A stretch of DNA of 64,000 nt from an uncultured Verrucomicrobiota bacterium (lineage in GTDB: Bacteria; Verrucomicrobiota; Kiritimatiellia; CAIVKH01), in NCBI GenBank assembly GCA_937872895.1, contig CALMUP010000008.1, forward strand, positions 225,613 through 289,612, given 5' to 3'. How positions within the stretch are numbered: position 1 is the first letter of the stretch; each line of letters starts with the position of its first letter. The notes beneath the pieces were generated by a model. The model saw only the letters and a program-made list of their open reading frames with translations. It had not been told where the DNA came from and did no database searches. Position numbers and translations under genes: made by a program. This document shows positions 6,708 through 15,777 of this stretch, in pieces.

Positions 6708-6835
6708 TATGTATTCCGGGATAAGGGAAACCGGATGCGAGAACAGCCCGGTTGATGTTCGCAACAGGCCGCGGCGAGGGCGTGTTTCGGGATGGCGCAC
6801 GCGTCGGTTCATAATCCTGCCATGGGCTTTTCCGG

Positions 6836-6900
6836 CGAATATCGCCGGAACTACAGAAGAAGATGATGTATCGGAAAACCTGTAGTTCCGGCGTTATACG
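6836..6900. repeat. REP-like nested palindromic element, family B: CCGGCG-N5-CGCCGG-AACTACAG, a loop, then CTGTAGTT-CCGGCG-N5-CGCCGG. A partial copy lies at 11066-11095.
   Basis: Same arm/loop/arm architecture as family A with a different core. A half element (ctgtagttccggcgatgttcgccgg) is present inside the 10.5-11.4 kb repeat array. Confidence 0.5.
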
Positions 6901-6964
6901 CCGGAAGGAAAAGGGTCTTGCTCGGTAGTTTGTGTTTCGCGCGGTGGTGGCGTAGGGTGCGGGT

Positions 6965-7244: not shown

Positions 7245-8174
7245 TCAGGGGGCGGTGCGCAGGGAAACACCGTCCCAGGTGATGGCGCGATCGGCGGCGC
7301 GCAGGTGATCCCACGAGAATCCGGCCACGAGGTCAACGGGACGGACCGGTGCGGCGTCGCGGGTGAGGCCCGCCGCGTGGGCGATCCAGCCGCACAGTGC
7401 TTCCGCCGCGTAATGCCGACGCAGCGTGGGCACGGCAACGCTCTGGTGGAACTTGGCGAGTTTGCCGCCGGTGGTTTCGAGCAGTAGCAGGTGGTGGCGG
7501 TAGCGCGGGGTGGGGAGGTGCAGGGCTTGCTGGAGAAGCATCTGGACCGGGGCGCTGGGCGCGAGGTCGCGGCCGCGGATGAGATGCGTGACCCCGAGGC
7601 GGGCATCGTCGACCACGCAGGCGAGGTGGTAGGCGATGGCCCCGTCGCGGCGGCGTACGACCGGGTCGCCCATGTCACGGGCGGGATGCTGGGTGATGCG
7701 GAGGCCGCTGTCATCGGTGACGTCGATGGCCGTGTCGGGCATGCGTACGCGCAACGGGTCGGAGCAGGAACGCCAGCCGGTGGCGGGAAGGAGACGGGAG
7801 CGGCACTGGTTGTCGTAGGCGAAGCCGCCGTCGGGGGCGGGGCGTCCGATGGCTTTCAGGCGGGAGCGGCTGCAGGAGCAGGGGTAGAGCAGGCCGGCGG
7901 CGGCCAGGCGATCCAGCGCGGCTTCGTGGTCGGCGAGAGCGCGGTGCTGGATCTCGACCGAATCCCAGTCCAGGCCAAACCACGACAGCTCCTCGATCAT
8001 CGCTTCGGTCAGTTCGGGCCGGCAGCGTTGCGGATCGAGGTCCTCCAGGCGCAACACCACGCGACCGCCCGCTGCGCGTGCCGCGAGCCAGCACAGCAAT
8101 CCGGACAACAGCGTGCCCGGGTGGGCATGGCCGGTGGTCGAAGGGGCGAAGCGGGTGACAAGGGGGGCGGTCAT
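7245..8174 (-). CDS. gluQ: Glutamyl-Q tRNA(Asp) synthetase
   Basis: From the internal ATG the product reads [47 protein letters not shown], a class I aaRS HIGH-like motif typical of GluQRS/YadB, and is about 310 aa. The 200-aa N-terminal extension in the ORF track is a Pro/Arg-rich GC artefact. Confidence 0.8.
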
Positions 8175-8938
8175 GGGGAAGAAGATGGGGATGGCAATGA
8201 AAATGGGGATGGGAATGGGGATGGAGATGGGGGCGTGGGACGAGTTGGTGATTGGTTCAAGTGTTTCCGGAGCAGGTTCCATCCGGGCAGGAAACTGTTC
8301 ATCAGGTGGTAGAAGCGCCGGTTGTGGGAAGGTTCCAATAGGTGGACGAGTTCGTGGACGACGACATACTCGAGGCATTCCGGTGGATGTTTGGCCAGTT
8401 CGGAGTTCAGTCGGATGTGGTGCTTGCGGGTATGGCAACTGCCCCAGCGGGATGTCATCTTCTGCACATGCCAGCGGGTGGCATGGACCTTCAGAACGGG
8501 TTCCCACTTTGCGGCAAGGGCGGGTAGGGCGAGGCGGACCTGGTTCCGGTACCAGGCGTCCAGCAGGGCGGCCCGGGAGTTCGTCGTGTGCGTACCTTCG
8601 CGTACCTGCAGAACAATGGCGTCGTGCGTTACGTCGACGGATGGCGTGGCGTGCGCTTCCTCGATCCGCAGGGGAAGCGCGCGGCCCCAGGCGAAATGCC
8701 GTTCGCCGTCGGTGAATGCGGCGGCCGGCGTGAGGGTCCGGGACAAGATCCGTTCGCGGTGCCGGGCGATCCATGCGGTTTTTGATGCGGCAAACGCCCG
8801 GATATCGTCCAGCGGCATGCGTGTGGGTGCGGAAATGCCGACACGCCCATCCGGCGGATAAACCCGCAGATGGATGTTCCGGATGTTTTTACGCTGCACG
8901 GCAATGCGAACCGCATCGATTTCGATCAGACACTCCAT
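8171..8938 (-). CDS. M48/YgjP-like (DUF45, SprT/WLM-type) zinc metallopeptidase
   Basis: [11 protein letters not shown] HExxH motif in a roughly 255-aa product. Start moved to [12 protein letters not shown]. Overlaps the gluQ start by 4 bp. Confidence 0.7.
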
Positions 8939-9256: not shown

Positions 9257-9330
9257 GCGGGTATAGTTCAATGGTAGAATAGAAGCTTCCCAAGCTTCGG
9301 GCGCGGGTTCGATTCCCGCTACCCGCTCCA
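9257..9330 (+). tRNA. tRNA-Gly (anticodon CCC)
   Basis: GCGGGTATAGTTCAATGGTAGAATAGAAGCTTCCCAAGCTTCGGGCGCGGGTTCGATTCCCGCTACCCGCTCCA. The 7-bp acceptor stem GCGGGTA/TACCCGC, D-loop, anticodon stem GAAGC/GCTTC with loop TTCCCAA, T-arm GCGGGTTCGATTCCCGC and encoded CCA are all present. Confidence 0.85.
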
Positions 9331-9351: not shown

Positions 9352-10533
9352 ATGGTGTTTCGATTGCTTCCCCTTTTGCTGGTGGTGGGTTCCGTGCAGG
9401 CCGAGTCGTGGGAGCGGGTGGCGGAGGGGAACCGGGCGTTCGCGGTGTCGCTGTACCGGGAGGTGGCGGGCGAGCCGGGCAATGTGTTCTTTTCCCCCTT
9501 CAGCATCTCGACGGCACTGGCCATGACCTATGTCGGAGCCCGGGGCGAAACGGCCGCGCAGATGCAATCAACGCTGCACTTTCCCGAATCACCCGAGTAT
9601 TTGCCGGAGGTCTGGGGCATGTGGCAGTCGCGGGTGGATCAGGTGGGTCGTGAGGGCAAGGTGACGCTTTCGGTGGCGAACTCGCTGTGGCCGGACGAGC
9701 GCTATCCCTTTCTTGATACCTACATGGCGACGGTTCGGGAACGTTTCAGGTCGGAGGTGTTCCCGGTGAACTTCGCGGAGACGGAGGCGGCGCGCCAGCA
9801 GATCAATACCTGGGTCGAGGACGCGACGGAGCAGTTGATCAAGGACCTGATCCAACCGGGCGTGTTGAATGCGCTGACCCGCATGGTGCTGGTGAATGCC
9901 ATCTACTTCAAGGGAACGTGGCAAACCACCTTCGGCCCCGAAGTGACGCGGCCGCAACCGTTCCACCTCGCCGATGGCTCGGTGATCGAGGTGCCGACGA
10001 TGTACGGGAAGGTGCCGGCCCGGTATGCGGCGCTCGATGGGGTGCAGCTCCTGGACCTGCCGTACCGGGGCGACCAGGTGTCGATGCTGGTGGTCGTGCC
10101 GGATACGCAAGAGCGGATGGCGGACCTGGAACGTTCGCTGTCGGTCGCGGTCATGGATCAATGGCTGGGCGCGGTCGAACCGACCGAGGTGCGGGTGTTC
10201 CTGCCGAAATTCACGATGACCCAGCACCTCGCTTTGTCGAAGATCCTGCAGGCGCTGGGCATGGTCGTGCCGTTCGATGACAAGGCGGCGAATTTCGCCG
10301 GCATGGACGGCCATGAAAACTACCTGTACATCAGCGACGTGGTCCATCAGGCCTTCGTCGCGGTGGATGAGGCGGGCACCGAGGCGGCGGCGGCGACGGC
10401 GGTGATCATGCAGGCGCGTTCGATGCCGCGGCCGAGTCCGGAGTTCCGGGCCGACCGGCCGTTCCTGTTCTTCATCCACGAACGCGCCAGCGGTAGCATC
10501 CTGTTTGCCGGGCGGGTGATGGATCCGCGGTAG
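9352..10533 (+). CDS. Serpin (serine protease inhibitor) family protein, secreted
   Basis: Signal peptide followed by serpin-family blocks (FFSPFSISTALAMTYVGARGETAAQM; NAIYFKGTWQTTF) and a hinge/reactive-centre-like region (EAGTEAAAATAVIMQARSMP) with a C-terminal PFLFFI motif. Confidence 0.85.
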   Translation: MVFRLLPLLLVVGSVQAESWERVAEGNRAFAVSLYREVAGEPGNVFFSPFSISTALAMTYVGARGETAAQMQSTLHFPESPEYLPEVWGMWQSRVDQVGREGKVTLSVANSLWPDERYPFLDTYMATVRERFRSEVFPVNFAETEAARQQINTWVEDATEQLIKDLIQPGVLNALTRMVLVNAIYFKGTWQTTFGPEVTRPQPFHLADGSVIEVPTMYGKVPARYAALDGVQLLDLPYRGDQVSMLVVVPDTQERMADLERSLSVAVMDQWLGAVEPTEVRVFLPKFTMTQHLALSKILQALGMVVPFDDKAANFAGMDGHENYLYISDVVHQAFVAVDEAGTEAAAATAVIMQARSMPRPSPEFRADRPFLFFIHERASGSILFAGRVMDPR

Positions 10534-10539
10534 CGTCAG

Positions 10540-11480
10540 CGGAGTGAACGTTACGTGGAGGGGGAACCACGAATGGACACGAAAGAACACGAATATGGCA
10601 GGTGCGTTGGTGATGGGGCGTTGCTTTCTTTTGAGTAATGATTCAGGAGTTTAACCGCAGAGTTCGCAGAGGGCGCAGAGGGTGGATGTGATGGGGTTGA
10701 TGGAGGCTGGGGTTCTGGGGGGTGAATTTTTCGCTCTGCGTATTCTGCGCGATCTGCGGTTCATTCCTTCCGGCAGTTTAACCACGGATGGGGCAGGTGG
10801 GGTGGTGACGGGGCGTTGCTTTGCTTTGAGTATTGATTCAGAAGTTTAACCGCAGAGTTTGCAGAGGGCGCAGAGGGTGGCTGTGATGGGGTTGATGGAG
10901 GCTGGGGTTCTGGGGGGTGACTTTTTCGCTCTGCGGATTCTGCGCGATCTGCGGTTCATTCCTTCCGGCAGTTTAACCACGGATGGACACGGAGGCACGC
11001 GGATGGGAAAACGAGGATTGAACAGAAGATCGCGAAGGACACGAAGGTGGGATGAAGAGCCTTCCATCTGTAGTTCCGGCGATGTTCGCCGGAAATTGAA
11101 CATGCACGGACGAATGATATGGGAAATCGGAACCGCAGAGGGCGCAGAAACCGCAGATGGAAAAGGGGAACCGCGGATTACGCGGAGAGCGCGGATGGGA
11201 GAGAAGAAATTGAACCACCCGCTTCGCTAGAGGACACGGAGAGCACGGAGAAGAAGTATGGAAATGGGTGTAGTAGCCGCTCCGTGAGCGGCAGGGAAAC
11301 GGAACGGACCTTGAACCGCAGAGGACGCAGAGACCGCAGAGGAAAAACGAATGGGTAGGATCCGGCATCCTTGCCGGACCGCCGGATTGGGAAAGTCCAA
11401 CCGCGAATTACGCTGATGACGCGGATGGGGGAATGGTTGATGGCCAGGAACTGATTCCGCGGATGGAGCCGCAGTGCTTG
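10540..11480. repeat. Array of at least 10 degenerate 30-bp iteron-like motifs, (G)AACC followed by three RCNGA pentamers at 9-10-bp spacing and then (A)TGG, on both strands. It includes a 195-bp tandem duplication (unit 1 about 10616-10810, unit 2 about 10811-11005).
   Basis: Example instances are gaaccACGAAtggacACGAAagaacACGAAtatgg, aaccGCAGAgttcGCAGAgggcGCAGAgggtgg, gaaccGCGGAttacGCGGAgagcGCGGAtggg and gaaccGCAGAggacGCAGAgaccGCAGAggaaaaacgaatgg. The reverse-strand copy cgctctgcgtattctgcgcgatctgcggtt shows the motif is not confined to one strand. No consistent reading frame runs through the repeats. Confidence 0.6.
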
Positions 11481-11881
11481 CCCGCCAAAGGCGCGGCCCT
11501 AACCGCGCTGAGGCGGAAGCGCGCGCGGCGGGGAGGCGGGACGGAACAAGGCCGGACAACCCGGCCGAAGGAACCCAACCAGGCCCCGCCAGTACCCATT
11601 GTCGCGACCAGACCAACCCCATCCCCATTTCCATTTCCCATCTCCATTCTTCCTCTCCCTCCTCCCCGCCTTGACCCCGCCCTCCACCCGCTGGTATCGT
11701 CCGATCCAGCAAGGAGCGCAATCTGGGGGGGCATGATGAGAGCGTTAAGGAACGGAGAGATATTGGGCCGTTGCTCGACGTGTGCGGACGCAAACGAATG
11801 ATGTGTTTGCATCGATGATGGAGATGTATGGTTGCTAATGCTGAAATGATCCCCACAGCTCAATGAACAAACGATTAGCCT

Positions 11882-14278
11882 ATGATTATCTACGTCTCCA
11901 CCAAGTCCGGCTTTATTGATGACGTATCCAAGAACCGGATTGAGGATAAAATTCTCACCTTGTTCAAGCGGCAACTGAGGCAGTCTACAGGGGAAAGCGA
12001 GATTAACTCGTGGAAGAACTCGATGCAGTACATGCACAATGTTCTCGTCCACAGCAAGATTCCGGACGACGCCGGCGTCGCCATTGAATACAACATTCCT
12101 CAAACATCCAAACGGATCGACTTTATCTTGACCGGTCAGGATGGTAACCGCCGTGATACGGCGGTCATTGTGGAGCTCAAGCAGTGGCAGGAAGTCTGGC
12201 GCACAGAAAAGGATGGTATTGTCACCACCGTCCTGAATGGCCGGAAGGTAGACACAAACCATCCCTCGTTTCAGGCATGGTCGTATGCCGCCTTATTGGA
12301 GGACTTCAATGAAGCCGTGCGCACAGAGCGAATCCAGCTCTCTCCCTGCGCCTACCTGCACAACTGCAGTTCCCCCCACGAGATCAACCATCCCTTTTAT
12401 GCTGAGCATACCGGCAAGGCACCTTCGTTTCTCAAAGCGGATGTGGAAAAGCTAACGGAATTCATTGAAAATTTCGTGAAGCATGGTGACCGCGGCAAGC
12501 TGATCTATCGAATCGATCAGGGCAAAATCAAACCGTCGAAGAGCCTTGCCGATGCCCTGCTGAACATGATTCAGGGCAACAAAGAGTTTCTACTCATCGA
12601 TGACCAGAAACTGGTCTACGAAACCGCCCTTGCGCTAGCCGACAAAGCGGAGCGCCACGGTAAACAGGTGCTCCTCGTGGAAGGCGGACCTGGAACCGGA
12701 AAATCGGTAGTTGCGATTAATCTTCTGGTCGAAATCACCAAGAGGGAAAAGGTGGTCCACTATGTCACGAAAAACGCTGCACCACGACAAGTGTATCAGA
12801 GTAAACTTGCTGGTACCTTGAGCCGGACCAGAATCGAAAATATGTTCCAGGGTTCCGGAAAGTATGTTGATAAGGAGAAAAATTGTATCGATGTGCTGGT
12901 GGTTGATGAAGCCCACCGACTAAATGAAAAGTCAGGCATGTTTCAGAACCTCGGTGAAAATCAGATCAAGGAAATCATTCATGCCGCCAAGTTGAGCGTT
13001 TTTTTCATCGATGAGGATCAGCGCGTCACATGGAAAGACGCCGGGCGGAAAAGTGACATCCGCCAATGGGCGAAACGTGCGGGCGCAGCCATCACAGAGT
13101 TGGCCCTTCAGTCTCAGTTCCGTTGCAATGGTTCAAACGGATATCTGGCCTGGCTAGATCATACCCTTCAAATACGGGAGACGGCGAACAGGTCGCTCGA
13201 AGGTGTTGATTATGACTTTCGTGTTTTCGATGATCCGATCCAACTGCGGCAGGTCATCTTTGAGAAAAACCTCGAAAGCAACAAGGCGCGTATCGTGGCC
13301 GGTTATTGCTGGGACTGGATCAGCAGAGCAGACAAGCGAAAAACCGACATCAATTTCCCGGAGCATGGATTTAAGATGCGGTGGAATCTAACCGATGACG
13401 GCGGACTTTGGATTCTAAAGCCGGACTCTGTGAATGAGGTTGGTTGCATTCACACCTGCCAAGGACTTGAGCTCGACTACATCGGTGTGATTATTGGTCC
13501 TGACTTCCTGGTCCGTGATGGTCGTGTTGTTGTATCGCCTGCTAGCCGAGCCAAGACCGACCAGTCCCTGAAGGGTTACAAACAGATGGCCCGCGTAAAT
13601 CCGGATGCCGCGTTTGCCAAAGCGGCCGAGATCATCAAGAACACCTACCGAACCCTGATGACCAGAGGGCAAAAGGGTTGTTTTATCTTCTGCACCGATC
13701 CAGAAACCAATGCGTTCTTTAAGCAGATGGCATCGACGGCTATGAAGGGATGCCAGATGGCGGAACAGGTACCTTATGCCGGGATCCCATTGACAATCTT
13801 GGATGCCGCCGACGTTAGACCTTACGAGAACGCGGTCCCGGTCTATGACCTGCGTATCGCCGCAGGCATTTTCAGCGAAGAACAGCAGGCCCGTGATTGT
13901 GACTGGGTTGAATTGCCCGACCCGTTCACGGCAAAGCCCGGATACTTTGTCGCCCGGGTCGTTGGGCATTCCATGAATCGTCGAATCGCCAGCGGATCGT
14001 GGTGCCTGTTCCGCACGCCGTCTGCCGGAAGCCGAAATGGCAAGATCGTACTGGTGCAACACCGAAACATTCAGGATCAGGACCTCGGTCAATTCGCCAT
14101 CAAAACCTATTATAGCGAGAAATCCTTTGTCGGGGATGAATGGCGCCACGAGCGAATCATCCTCAAACCTGACACCACGGCATCCGGATACCACGACATA
14201 ATCCTTGAGAAGGATGAGGCCGTTGACCTTCGAATCCTTGGTGAATTTGTGGCATCTTTGGGTCAGAGGCCGGATTAA
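11882..14278 (+). CDS. Multidomain nuclease-helicase-peptidase fusion: N-terminal PD-(D/E)xK nuclease-like domain, DUF2075/Schlafen-type P-loop ATPase-helicase core, and C-terminal LexA-like S24 autopeptidase domain
   Basis: N-terminus KRIDFILTG...AVIVELKQW is a D...ExK-type motif. Walker A VLLVEGGPGTGKSVVA and Walker B/DEAH VLVVDEAHRL lie within a DUF2075-like core. The C-terminus aligns with LexA motif by motif: RIAAGIF against RVAAGEP (Ala-Gly site), ARVVGHSM against LRVSGMSM (Ser), NGKIVLVQ against NGQVVVAR, and FAIKTYYSEK against VTVKRLKKQG (Lys). GC is about 50% against about 65% in the flanks. Confidence 0.8.
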   Translation: MIIYVSTKSGFIDDVSKNRIEDKILTLFKRQLRQSTGESEINSWKNSMQYMHNVLVHSKIPDDAGVAIEYNIPQTSKRIDFILTGQDGNRRDTAVIVELKQWQEVWRTEKDGIVTTVLNGRKVDTNHPSFQAWSYAALLEDFNEAVRTERIQLSPCAYLHNCSSPHEINHPFYAEHTGKAPSFLKADVEKLTEFIENFVKHGDRGKLIYRIDQGKIKPSKSLADALLNMIQGNKEFLLIDDQKLVYETALALADKAERHGKQVLLVEGGPGTGKSVVAINLLVEITKREKVVHYVTKNAAPRQVYQSKLAGTLSRTRIENMFQGSGKYVDKEKNCIDVLVVDEAHRLNEKSGMFQNLGENQIKEIIHAAKLSVFFIDEDQRVTWKDAGRKSDIRQWAKRAGAAITELALQSQFRCNGSNGYLAWLDHTLQIRETANRSLEGVDYDFRVFDDPIQLRQVIFEKNLESNKARIVAGYCWDWISRADKRKTDINFPEHGFKMRWNLTDDGGLWILKPDSVNEVGCIHTCQGLELDYIGVIIGPDFLVRDGRVVVSPASRAKTDQSLKGYKQMARVNPDAAFAKAAEIIKNTYRTLMTRGQKGCFIFCTDPETNAFFKQMASTAMKGCQMAEQVPYAGIPLTILDAADVRPYENAVPVYDLRIAAGIFSEEQQARDCDWVELPDPFTAKPGYFVARVVGHSMNRRIASGSWCLFRTPSAGSRNGKIVLVQHRNIQDQDLGQFAIKTYYSEKSFVGDEWRHERIILKPDTTASGYHDIILEKDEAVDLRILGEFVASLGQRPD

Positions 14279-15671: not shown

Positions 15672-15777
15672 GTAGTGAGACGTGAGGGGGAATGGTTACC
15701 CGCCGAAGGCGGATCCGGCTTTGGCGGGATGGGTGATGGAGAATGGTTGATGGCTGATGGTTGATGGGGATGGGGGG

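Follow-up and report, generated by a model that had tools for sequence, protein, structure and literature searches.

What kind of element is the array of short direct repeats that lies at positions 10565-11425 of a 64-kb stretch of DNA (hereafter the window; contig CALMUP010000008.1 of an uncultured bacterium of the Kiritimatiellia, Verrucomicrobiota), between a serpin gene (9352-10533, +) and a gene of 798 aa (11882-14278, +)? An initial annotation, made from the sequence of the window, had proposed iterons, a partition site or a multi-site operator. We compared the array with sequences from other genomes, which were mostly metagenome-assembled genomes or metagenome contigs and for which the open reading frames (ORFs) called by our script were crude, and found that the same repeat module flanks a small nuclease gene of the GxxExxY family. 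The explanation that we favor, with a probability of about 0.7, is that gene-less copies of one repeat family are clustered locally in the array, and that the full form of this family is the terminal inverted repeats of a single-gene nuclease cassette of ~0.45-0.5 kb.

A nuclease gene between inverted arms

We scanned a collection of species-representative genomes for one core type of the motif (AACCGCAGA N4-5 GCAGA N4-5 GCAGA) and obtained at least 120 stretches, compared with ~17 expected by chance for the whole collection according to our own estimate. The bacterial matches among those listed belonged to Microcoleus and other cyanobacteria, Verrucomicrobia, Planctomycetes, Kiritimatiellia, Acidobacteria, Chloroflexi, Gemmatimonadota, Bacteroides, and gamma- and beta-proteobacteria, and the archaeal matches among those listed to Methanoperedens and Methanosarcinales; several of the motif-bearing genomes were those of cultured isolates, among them Geothrix fuzhouensis SG12, Bacteroides sp. 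51 and isolates of Microcoleus. The same GCAGA pattern was present in 62 stretches of viral contigs from IMG/VR. The 8-kb loci that we fetched contained 51 extra copies with other cores (ACAGA, ACGGA, GCGAA, ACGAA and ACAAA), and a search of those loci with two mismatches allowed gave 325 copies in total. As determined by an all-against-all BLAST comparison of the neighboring ORFs, the genes beside the motif are unrelated to one another, and no gene family adjoined most copies; the comparison gave only ABC-transporter genes, which represent host context, and GxxExxY genes.

In six loci (L040, L067, L077, L104, L106 and L113), an ORF of ~125 aa is preceded by a forward module that ends at its ATG or a short distance upstream, and its stop codon is soon followed by an inverted module. 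This ORF corresponds to Pfam PF13366 (PDDEXK_3, E 4e-41) and to NCBIfam TIGR04256, 'GxxExxY'. Every GxxExxY gene in the motif-selected loci was bracketed in this manner (6/6), with no other GxxExxY genes there, and the sole GxxExxY gene in the viral loci (L232) also lies between a forward and a reverse copy. We further assembled an unbiased set of loci by protein similarity alone (at least 583 of 600 matched metagenome stretches encode relatives; 80 loci were kept). On visual inspection, [A/C]ACC with three units preceded the ATG in nearly all of these loci, and the stop codon was followed by the reverse complement. In a strict test, a triple repeat was located within 110 nt of 74 of the 78 protein-selected genes, compared with 45 of 974 control windows; it was present on both sides of 39 genes, only upstream of 17 and only downstream of 18. 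The 5' arm could be aligned with the reverse complement of the 3' arm in 71 out of 84 cassettes. When intervals of 200-1300 nt between a forward and a reverse copy were collected from all loci, 27 of the 53 were flagged as GxxExxY by BLAST; L067 and L104 provide two further GxxExxY intervals, in which the longest ORF chosen by our script was on the opposite strand. No other recurrent cargo was found in the 53 intervals, nor did the arms flank a gene for a REP-associated tyrosine transposase (RAYT; Y1 transposase), where REP denotes a repetitive extragenic palindrome. The cassettes are located in short spacers of housekeeping operons, such as those of a MacB-type ABC transporter, trp, sdh, carB and methylmalonyl-CoA mutase.

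In the alignment of the nuclease, the PD-(D/E)XK triad (D69, E79 and K81) and the GxxExxY stretch are invariant. A relative in the PDB was not found by sequence, and the AlphaFold2 model (pLDDT 94, pTM 0.87) predicts a minimal RecB/Cas4-like DNA nuclease fold, which fits the predicted action on DNA. Often the start codon of the gene is contiguous with, or part of, the 5' arm, and a GAGG-like core precedes it by 8-11 nt. Many GxxExxY models in databases are 140-155 aa in length, compared with ~125 aa here (P0123-P0240), and the stop-to-stop ORFs of L040, L067 and L113 carry the arm-derived peptides TAEDAESAEE, TQMNTDEE and PQRTQRSQ; the extra N-terminal residues of these models are probably the translated 5' arm. 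The repeats of a type III toxin-antitoxin system (ToxI-like) were considered for the arms and rejected, given that the units are much too short and that an inverted arm follows the gene.

We then searched the window using an nhmmer profile constructed from 52 protein-selected arms. Nine matches were obtained, all at 10650-11343 (best E 3.2e-7), with none elsewhere in the 64 kb. Because this arm-only profile matches the window solely inside the array, we assign the window copies, on the basis of sequence similarity, to the GxxExxY-arm family. No GxxExxY homologue was detected by tblastn in the window or in the 9.4 kb beyond its start, and the window copies are therefore gene-less derivatives. 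Likewise, no further copy of the motif was found in the rest of the 64 kb or in those 9.4 kb.

Arm anatomy and turnover in close strains

Each arm follows a common plan, with an [A/C]ACC anchor followed by 2-4 (mode 3) units of 9-10 nt, each with an RCNRAK core; runs of two, three, four and five cores were observed 39, 293, 23 and 2 times, respectively. Conservation extends from ~4 nt before AACC (T-rich) to ~15 nt past the last core (C-poor and purine-rich), which makes the arm a compact module. Within a module, the three units are direct repeats and form no palindrome. Modules often occur as inverted doublets: in 86 cases a forward and a reverse copy were neighbors, generally separated by 7-200 nt, and many solos were present in addition. 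More than 95% of the copies in other loci are gene-less, and some solos end 6-9 nt ahead of the start codons of unrelated genes. Nesting is also common, in clusters ordered +A +B -B -A whose inner and outer pairs have different cores (a contig of Methanoperedens has a cluster of eight modules), and same-orientation arrays of solos with differing cores were found in L067, L043, L221 and L223. The window array, an 11-module cluster, is the largest among the clusters examined.

The core type varies among elements (GCAGAG, ACAGAG, ACGGAG, GCGGAG, GCCGAG, ACGAAG, GCAAAG, ACCAAG and even GGTGAG-like), and the same kind occurs in both arms of an element. Accordingly, the mean distance between cores was 0.89 when they came from opposite arms of an element, 0.92 when they came from the same arm and 1.41 when they came from different elements. 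The two arms are 86% identical in the cores and 57% identical in the spacers, and spacer 1 equals spacer 2 in 20% of the copies versus 4.6% expected. The sequence flanking the arms is inverted, not direct. Where the cores of an element are heterogeneous, we found no consistent mirror order (mirrored in L124, the opposite in L136). In two Microcoleus loci (L023, 577-640, and L118, 3976-4040), orthologous hairpin doublets have reversed loops (tgaatcaca versus tgtgattca), which suggests a flip by recombination between the arms.

The same array is present in a close strain (L205), whose flanks are 98-99% identical to the window. This strain has a single 195-bp unit, and the duplication that is found in the window is absent there. 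Copy 2 has two cores in L205 and in a second strain (L204; JGI 3300006417), compared with three in the window, a difference of exactly one 9-bp unit. Concerted evolution through unit turnover is directly visible in the absence of this unit from two close strains and in the excess of copies with equal spacers, and both the unit number and the local copy number differ between close strains via 9-bp slippage and 195-bp duplication. The substitutions in L205 affect spacers and cores alike, and the middle core of copy 10 is GTGGA there, i.e. the otherwise invariant C is changed. Over 10783-12000, a stretch that runs from the array to just inside the downstream gene, the window is 97.5% identical to L205, compared with 98.9% in the largely coding DNA upstream. 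L204, a strain with 94-97% identity, matches the array as far as copy 11, which has its own diverged inverted partner in L204 (1990-2100 of that locus), compared with a solo at 11203-11250 in the window. The L204 sequence beyond this partner contains a gene for an M29 peptidase and an mraZ-rsmH-ftsI cluster, genes that are absent from the window; either a rearrangement at the repeat site or a chimeric assembly accounts for the difference. No more distant syntenic relatives of the serpin locus were found, and the candidates P0003 and P0004 are non-syntenic.

The array and its neighborhood

The pattern of AACC followed by RCNRA N4-5 RCNRA N4-5 RCNRA had 10 matches in the window, all within 10565-11425, compared with a mean of 0.005 per block shuffle of the window, in agreement with the dense array that the initial annotation had placed between the serpin gene and a nuclease-helicase-peptidase gene. 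The three pentamers are identical in 8 of the 10 matches. The annotation had also noted this identity within copies, which holds statistically: with the duplicated pair excluded, 6 of 8 copies are homogeneous, a number that was equaled in 0 of 200,000 permutations of the pentamers. Triples of identical pentamers with a spacing of 8-11 nt are rare elsewhere in the window and unrelated to the motif. By reading the sequence, we added decayed or partial copies at 10780, 11020 and 11213, and the array contains 10 clear and about four decayed copies. The pentamer had been given as RCNGA and is taken here as RCNRA; variation in the window consists almost solely of purine transitions (RCRRA), and position 3 is free in other genomes. 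The unit spacing is 9 nt where the core is GCAGA or GCGGA and 10 nt where it is ACGAA or ACGGA. A closing (A)TGG does not belong to the motif, as it is not conserved in other genomes and is part of a local purine/G-rich tail. The annotation had appended it because G/T-rich GATGG / ATGGGG tracts recur in this genome; these tracts are located at 8173-8232, 15726-15776, 10683-10715 and 11425-11450, in intergenic DNA, the loops of the 195-bp units and the 3' end of a YgjP-like gene. The plus strand of the array is strongly purine-rich (GC skew 0.2-0.4, AT skew up to 0.49, GC 0.55-0.57).

The array begins with copy 1 (10565-10593, +), a solo forward module of AACC and three ACGAA cores with 10-nt spacing. 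A tandem duplication of two 195-bp units follows, with 94% identity and with one forward and one reverse module per unit, as the annotation had described; TRF sets its bounds at 10597-10986 (period 195, 2.0 copies, 94% matches). The forward doublet arm in unit 1 is copy 2 (10653-10680, +; nhmmer E 3.2e-7), which consists of AACC and three GCAGA cores with 9-nt spacing, and the reverse arm is copy 3 (10734-10761, -; three GCAGA cores, also an nhmmer match), which lies 53 nt from copy 2; the cores of the two arms pair and the spacers do not. Copies 5 (10848-10875, +; E 3.5e-6) and 6 (10929-10956, -) are their respective duplicates in unit 2. Between the two doublets, a truncated forward copy (10780-10792, +; AACC ACGGA TGG...) is broken at the duplication junction, and its complete counterpart is copy 7 (10975-11003, +), in which AACC precedes ACGGA, ACGGA and GCGGA with 10-nt spacing. 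The remainder comprises copy 8 (11020-11047, +), a decayed module of GAAC and ACAGA, GCGAA and ACGAA; a one-unit reverse remnant (11063-11075, -; reverse complement AACTACAGATGGA); copy 9 (11131-11157, +), with AACC and three GCAGA cores; copy 10 (11169-11195, +), with AACC and three GCGGA cores; copy 11 (11213-11250, +), with AACC, an aberrant first unit and two ACGGA cores; copy 12 (11314-11340, +; E 2.5e-6), again with AACC and three GCAGA cores; and copy 13 (11399-11425, +), a decayed module of GCGAA, GCTGA and GCGGA. Copies 9 and 12 are ~91% identical over 35 nt and are therefore local paralogues.

In total, the array has two inverted doublets, and its other 9-10 modules are forward solos. 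The doublets (10653-10761 and 10848-10956) are small, lack coding capacity and have a MITE-like anatomy (MITE, miniature inverted-repeat transposable element). The statement that copies occur on both strands is correct insofar as reverse copies exist; they are confined to the two inside the 195-bp units, apart from the remnant at 11063, and all other copies are on the plus strand. As had been concluded previously, the array is neither coding (the 10-nt spacing disrupts the frame, and the overlapping ORFs are short and spurious) nor a CRISPR array, given the irregular distances between module starts (roughly 40-130 nt) and the mutual differences among modules. A sponge RNA of the CsrA/Rsm type with GGA motifs, suggested by the ACGGAUGG units, was rejected since GGA is absent from most cores (GCAGA, ACGAA, ACAGA). 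Separately, a second small hairpin family (TTCCGGCG-N5-CGCCGGAA) occurs at 6830-6850, 6886-6906 and 11074-11094, the third copy within the array; the three copies have perfect stems, compared with 0.16 copies expected.

The genes called from ~19 kb upstream to ~11 kb downstream of the array include urease genes, a HerA-like ATPase, a tRNA-synthetase-like gene, YgjP, tRNA-Gly, the serpin, an SLFN-type helicase/S24 peptidase, two genes of unknown function, SecA and Lnt. Genes for Rep, ParA or ParB (parM/parR-type) were not found among them; nor was an integrase, for which no dedicated search was made. The array is located exactly at a border in composition between flanking DNA with a GC content of 0.63-0.68 and a gene with a GC content of 0.45-0.55, and no AT-rich stretch is present at the array itself. 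The 798-aa product encoded at 11882-14278 contains an SLFN-group-3 helicase joined to an S24 peptidase domain, and it is matched in PADLOC by PDC-S41, AbiO and Nhi, which are defense nuclease-helicases; considering its foreign composition, it is probably a horizontally acquired defense gene. A promoter-like site is located near this gene (11671-11700), and we found no link between the gene and the repeat motif. On the other side, tRNA-Gly(CCC) (9257-9330) ends ~20 nt ahead of the serpin start codon (9352). A match to Rfam 5_ureB_sRNA (86 bits) at 62-393, beside the urease cluster, is probably conserved ureB coding sequence, not a separate small RNA gene. Beyond the window start, a toxin-antitoxin-like DUF6364 / PIN_3 pair (L274, 13325-13974) lies between ureF and a cobW/ureG-like gene.

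Origin of the array and related systems

If the array consists of gene-less arms of a nuclease cassette, an oligomer of the nuclease that the element encodes may bind the phased cores, a model suggested by the multi-site ends of Mu, Tn7 and IS21. Such binding would allow the cassette, and its gene-less derivatives in trans, to be cut and moved or copied. By analogy with RAYTs and their REP doublets (REPINs) and with pairs of insertion sequences (ISs) and MITEs, the cassette and its gene-less derivatives may be mobile, now or formerly. The nesting and the arrays suggest that new copies might land preferentially in or beside existing copies, which would yield nested clusters. A more far-reaching proposal, that GxxExxY cassettes are undescribed, pan-prokaryotic, minimal autonomous mobile elements whose nuclease recognizes its own arms and mobilizes gene-less copies, with arrays as landing pads, is offered only tentatively, as a reading less likely than not. 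The array in the window itself is most likely non-functional selfish-DNA debris, still changing through slippage and duplication, without a role in replication, partition or the regulation of a neighboring gene.

Several observations weigh against this explanation. With respect to mobility, neither a clean insertion nor a target-site duplication was found in an all-against-all comparison of 262 loci; of two candidate empty sites, L263 proved to be a false positive and L224/L241 a messy indel. In L194, L173 and L154, the inverted similarity runs outward beyond ACC, such that the ends are blurred. A sub-group of GxxExxY loci (L139, L147, L160 and probably L180), located just upstream of the gene for the B12-binding small subunit of methylmalonyl-CoA mutase, has arms that face outward, the reverse arm lying upstream of the gene and the forward arm downstream. 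To our knowledge, no PD-(D/E)XK protein of this size acts alone as a transposase. In the ~73 kb of this genome, no GxxExxY gene was found, and a nuclease acting in trans may be absent; the copies are clustered rather than dispersed; and all 9-10 solos of the window are co-oriented, which random insertion does not predict. The co-orientation of the solos and their clustering in otherwise copy-free DNA point either to local growth, through duplication and unit turnover, or to insertion targeted beside existing copies.

The main rival is an element that acts at the RNA level, in particular for doublets within operons. Paired arms would form interrupted hairpins that stabilize or process mRNA, and the purine-rich forward arm would provide Shine-Dalgarno-like GAGG/GGAG and sometimes a start codon. 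REP and Correia elements, as well as the RNase III stems around the intervening sequences of 23S rRNA, are precedents for such a role. In accordance with it, the doublet at 10640-10775 folds as a long interrupted hairpin (-52 kcal/mol, z -2.4), the cassettes and doublets inside housekeeping operons are probably co-transcribed with them, and GAGG-like cores lie ahead of the start codons of GxxExxY genes, as some solos do ahead of other genes. However, an RNA stem on the sense transcript would be expected to favor G-U over A-C mismatches, and this was not the case (161 G-U-compatible versus 155 A-C mismatches between arms on the sense strand, P = 0.78; 16 versus 14 in the cores alone), which argues against RNA pairing. 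The spacers between cores show no co-variation, cores in the pairing register match no better than those out of it (0.93 versus 1.01), and where the flanking ORFs are co-directional, solos show only a weak bias in their orientation to them (29 versus 17, P = 0.10; the ORF calls are crude). Shuffled sequences fold as well as the solo part of the array (z -0.64), and Rfam gave no relevant match for the whole window at gathering thresholds or for the region at E <= 10 (nothing below E 1.9), consistent with the annotation's view of a DNA-level feature rather than a structured non-coding RNA. Judging from these sequence comparisons, a DNA-level cause, either a common recognizing factor or concerted evolution, accounts better for the similarity among the cores of an element, and we regard the RNA-level role as unlikely.

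A lower probability still is given to REP-like sites domesticated by the host, at which a host factor (a nucleoid protein, gyrase, or a terminator or insulator) would act and the array would insulate the serpin gene from the acquired low-GC gene. The position of the array exactly at the border in GC content, its persistence, slightly changed, in strains with 97-99% identity, and the secondary uses of this kind that enterobacterial REP elements have are in its favor, whereas no host factor is common to bacteria, archaea and viruses that would read one 30-nt module. Moreover, core mutations in L205 include the otherwise invariant C, and the array-bearing non-coding stretch diverges more than the DNA upstream (97.5% versus 98.9%). 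Iterons, a parS/parC-like centromere or a multi-site operator of an integrated replicon or neighboring gene, as originally proposed, are highly improbable, even though direct repeats spaced at approximately one helical turn lie in one intergenic region, with a compositionally foreign gene next to it and a tRNA gene nearby. The 9-10-bp units differ among copies to an extent that would be intolerable to a single sequence-specific initiator or centromere-binding protein, no gene for Rep, ParA, ParB or an integrase is among the called neighbors, no AT-rich unwinding region is present, the motif recurs in the at least 120 stretches of unrelated genomes beside unrelated genes, and elsewhere the module consistently flanks the nuclease gene. 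What survives of these proposals is that each module may plausibly be a multi-site target of an oligomeric DNA-binding protein, not an operator of the adjacent gene, and that the relic of an integrated element was close in spirit to a mobile-element relic, not to an origin or partition site. We attach the least probability to the view that the array arose only locally, as a simple sequence slipped and duplicated, and that it has no relation to the copies in other genomes. The 195-bp duplication, the 9-bp indel between strains and the paralogy of copies 9 and 12 would be expected from such a process, but a profile of arms from unrelated metagenomes matches these copies, with E values as low as 3e-7, and no other part of the window, and the AACC anchor, core pattern, spacing and unit number all fit the GxxExxY-arm family.

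The nuclease cassette with gene-less arms can be compared with several known systems. REP and REPIN sequences and their RAYT transposases (Bertels & Rainey 2011, PMC3116915; PMC3337134) are similar in that short extragenic repeats occur as solos and as inverted doublets with short spacers, inverted repeats flank one small gene that is thought to act on them, and gene-less copies are far commoner. However, the flanked gene encodes a PD-(D/E)XK nuclease instead of a Y1 (IS200/IS605-type) transposase, the module consists of three direct repeats instead of a palindrome with a GTAG head, and a genome commonly has several GxxExxY genes, whereas RAYTs, according to published abstracts, are typically present as a single copy. 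REP sequences are also lineage-specific, whereas the GxxExxY-arm family spans many phyla, archaea and viral contigs. Spread as a generic REP family, which the annotation had set against its own proposals, is thus observed across genomes and not within the ~73 kb of this genome, where the copies are clustered.

MITEs, such as the Correia elements of Neisseria, are gene-less derivatives of gene-carrying parent insertion sequences. They share with the present family terminal inverted repeats about a short interior, intergenic locations and nesting, in contrast to which neither a target-site duplication nor a recognized transposase was seen for the GxxExxY arms, which are built of phased 9-10-bp direct repeats. 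The best analogue for three phased cores is provided by the ends of Mu (L1-L3/R1-R3), the TnsB sites of Tn7 and the multiple terminal repeats of IS21, where each end has several short direct sites and the ends are mutually inverted; however, those sites are of ~20 bp and belong to elements of several kb with DDE transposases, whereas the units here are of 9-10 bp in an element of 0.5 kb with one nuclease gene. Intervening sequences of 23S rRNA reportedly carry a small ORF (the four-helix-bundle or 'S23p' family) between repeats that form an RNase III stem, an observation attributed to Ralph and McClelland in 1993. They resemble the cassette as a small ORF of unknown function between inverted repeats in a housekeeping transcription unit, and differ in the protein family and in the absence of an RNA-pairing signal from the GxxExxY arms. 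Plasmid and phage iterons and parS/parC sites are likewise clustered, non-coding direct repeats at roughly helical spacing. Iterons are 17-22 bp in length, nearly identical per origin and adjacent to rep and an AT-rich region, and par sites lie beside parAB, whereas rep, parAB and an AT-rich region were not found here and the motif is dispersed across unrelated genomes.

A published account of the arms or of the function of GxxExxY was not found in the literature searched, with subscription journals outside its coverage, and Rfam has no family for them; when the literature was searched with sequence strings, only primers were obtained. Database curators may already be aware of the repeats. In kind, the system resembles REPIN-RAYT and MITE-IS pairs, from which it differs in the enzyme, the direct-repeat arms and the breadth across prokaryotes and viral contigs. 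The GxxExxY / PDDEXK_3 family is very large (at least 8000 candidates were scored, all significant) and nearly absent from the literature searched, in which three papers give its name and none deals with what the protein does; the bracketing by arms provides it with a candidate DNA substrate and a testable role. The arms would also account for a class of short repeats scattered between the genes of cyanobacteria, the Planctomycetes-Verrucomicrobia-Chlamydiae group, Acidobacteria, Chloroflexi, some archaea and viral contigs. For the bacterium examined here, the array would be annotated as dispersed-repeat debris rather than as an origin, centromere or operator.

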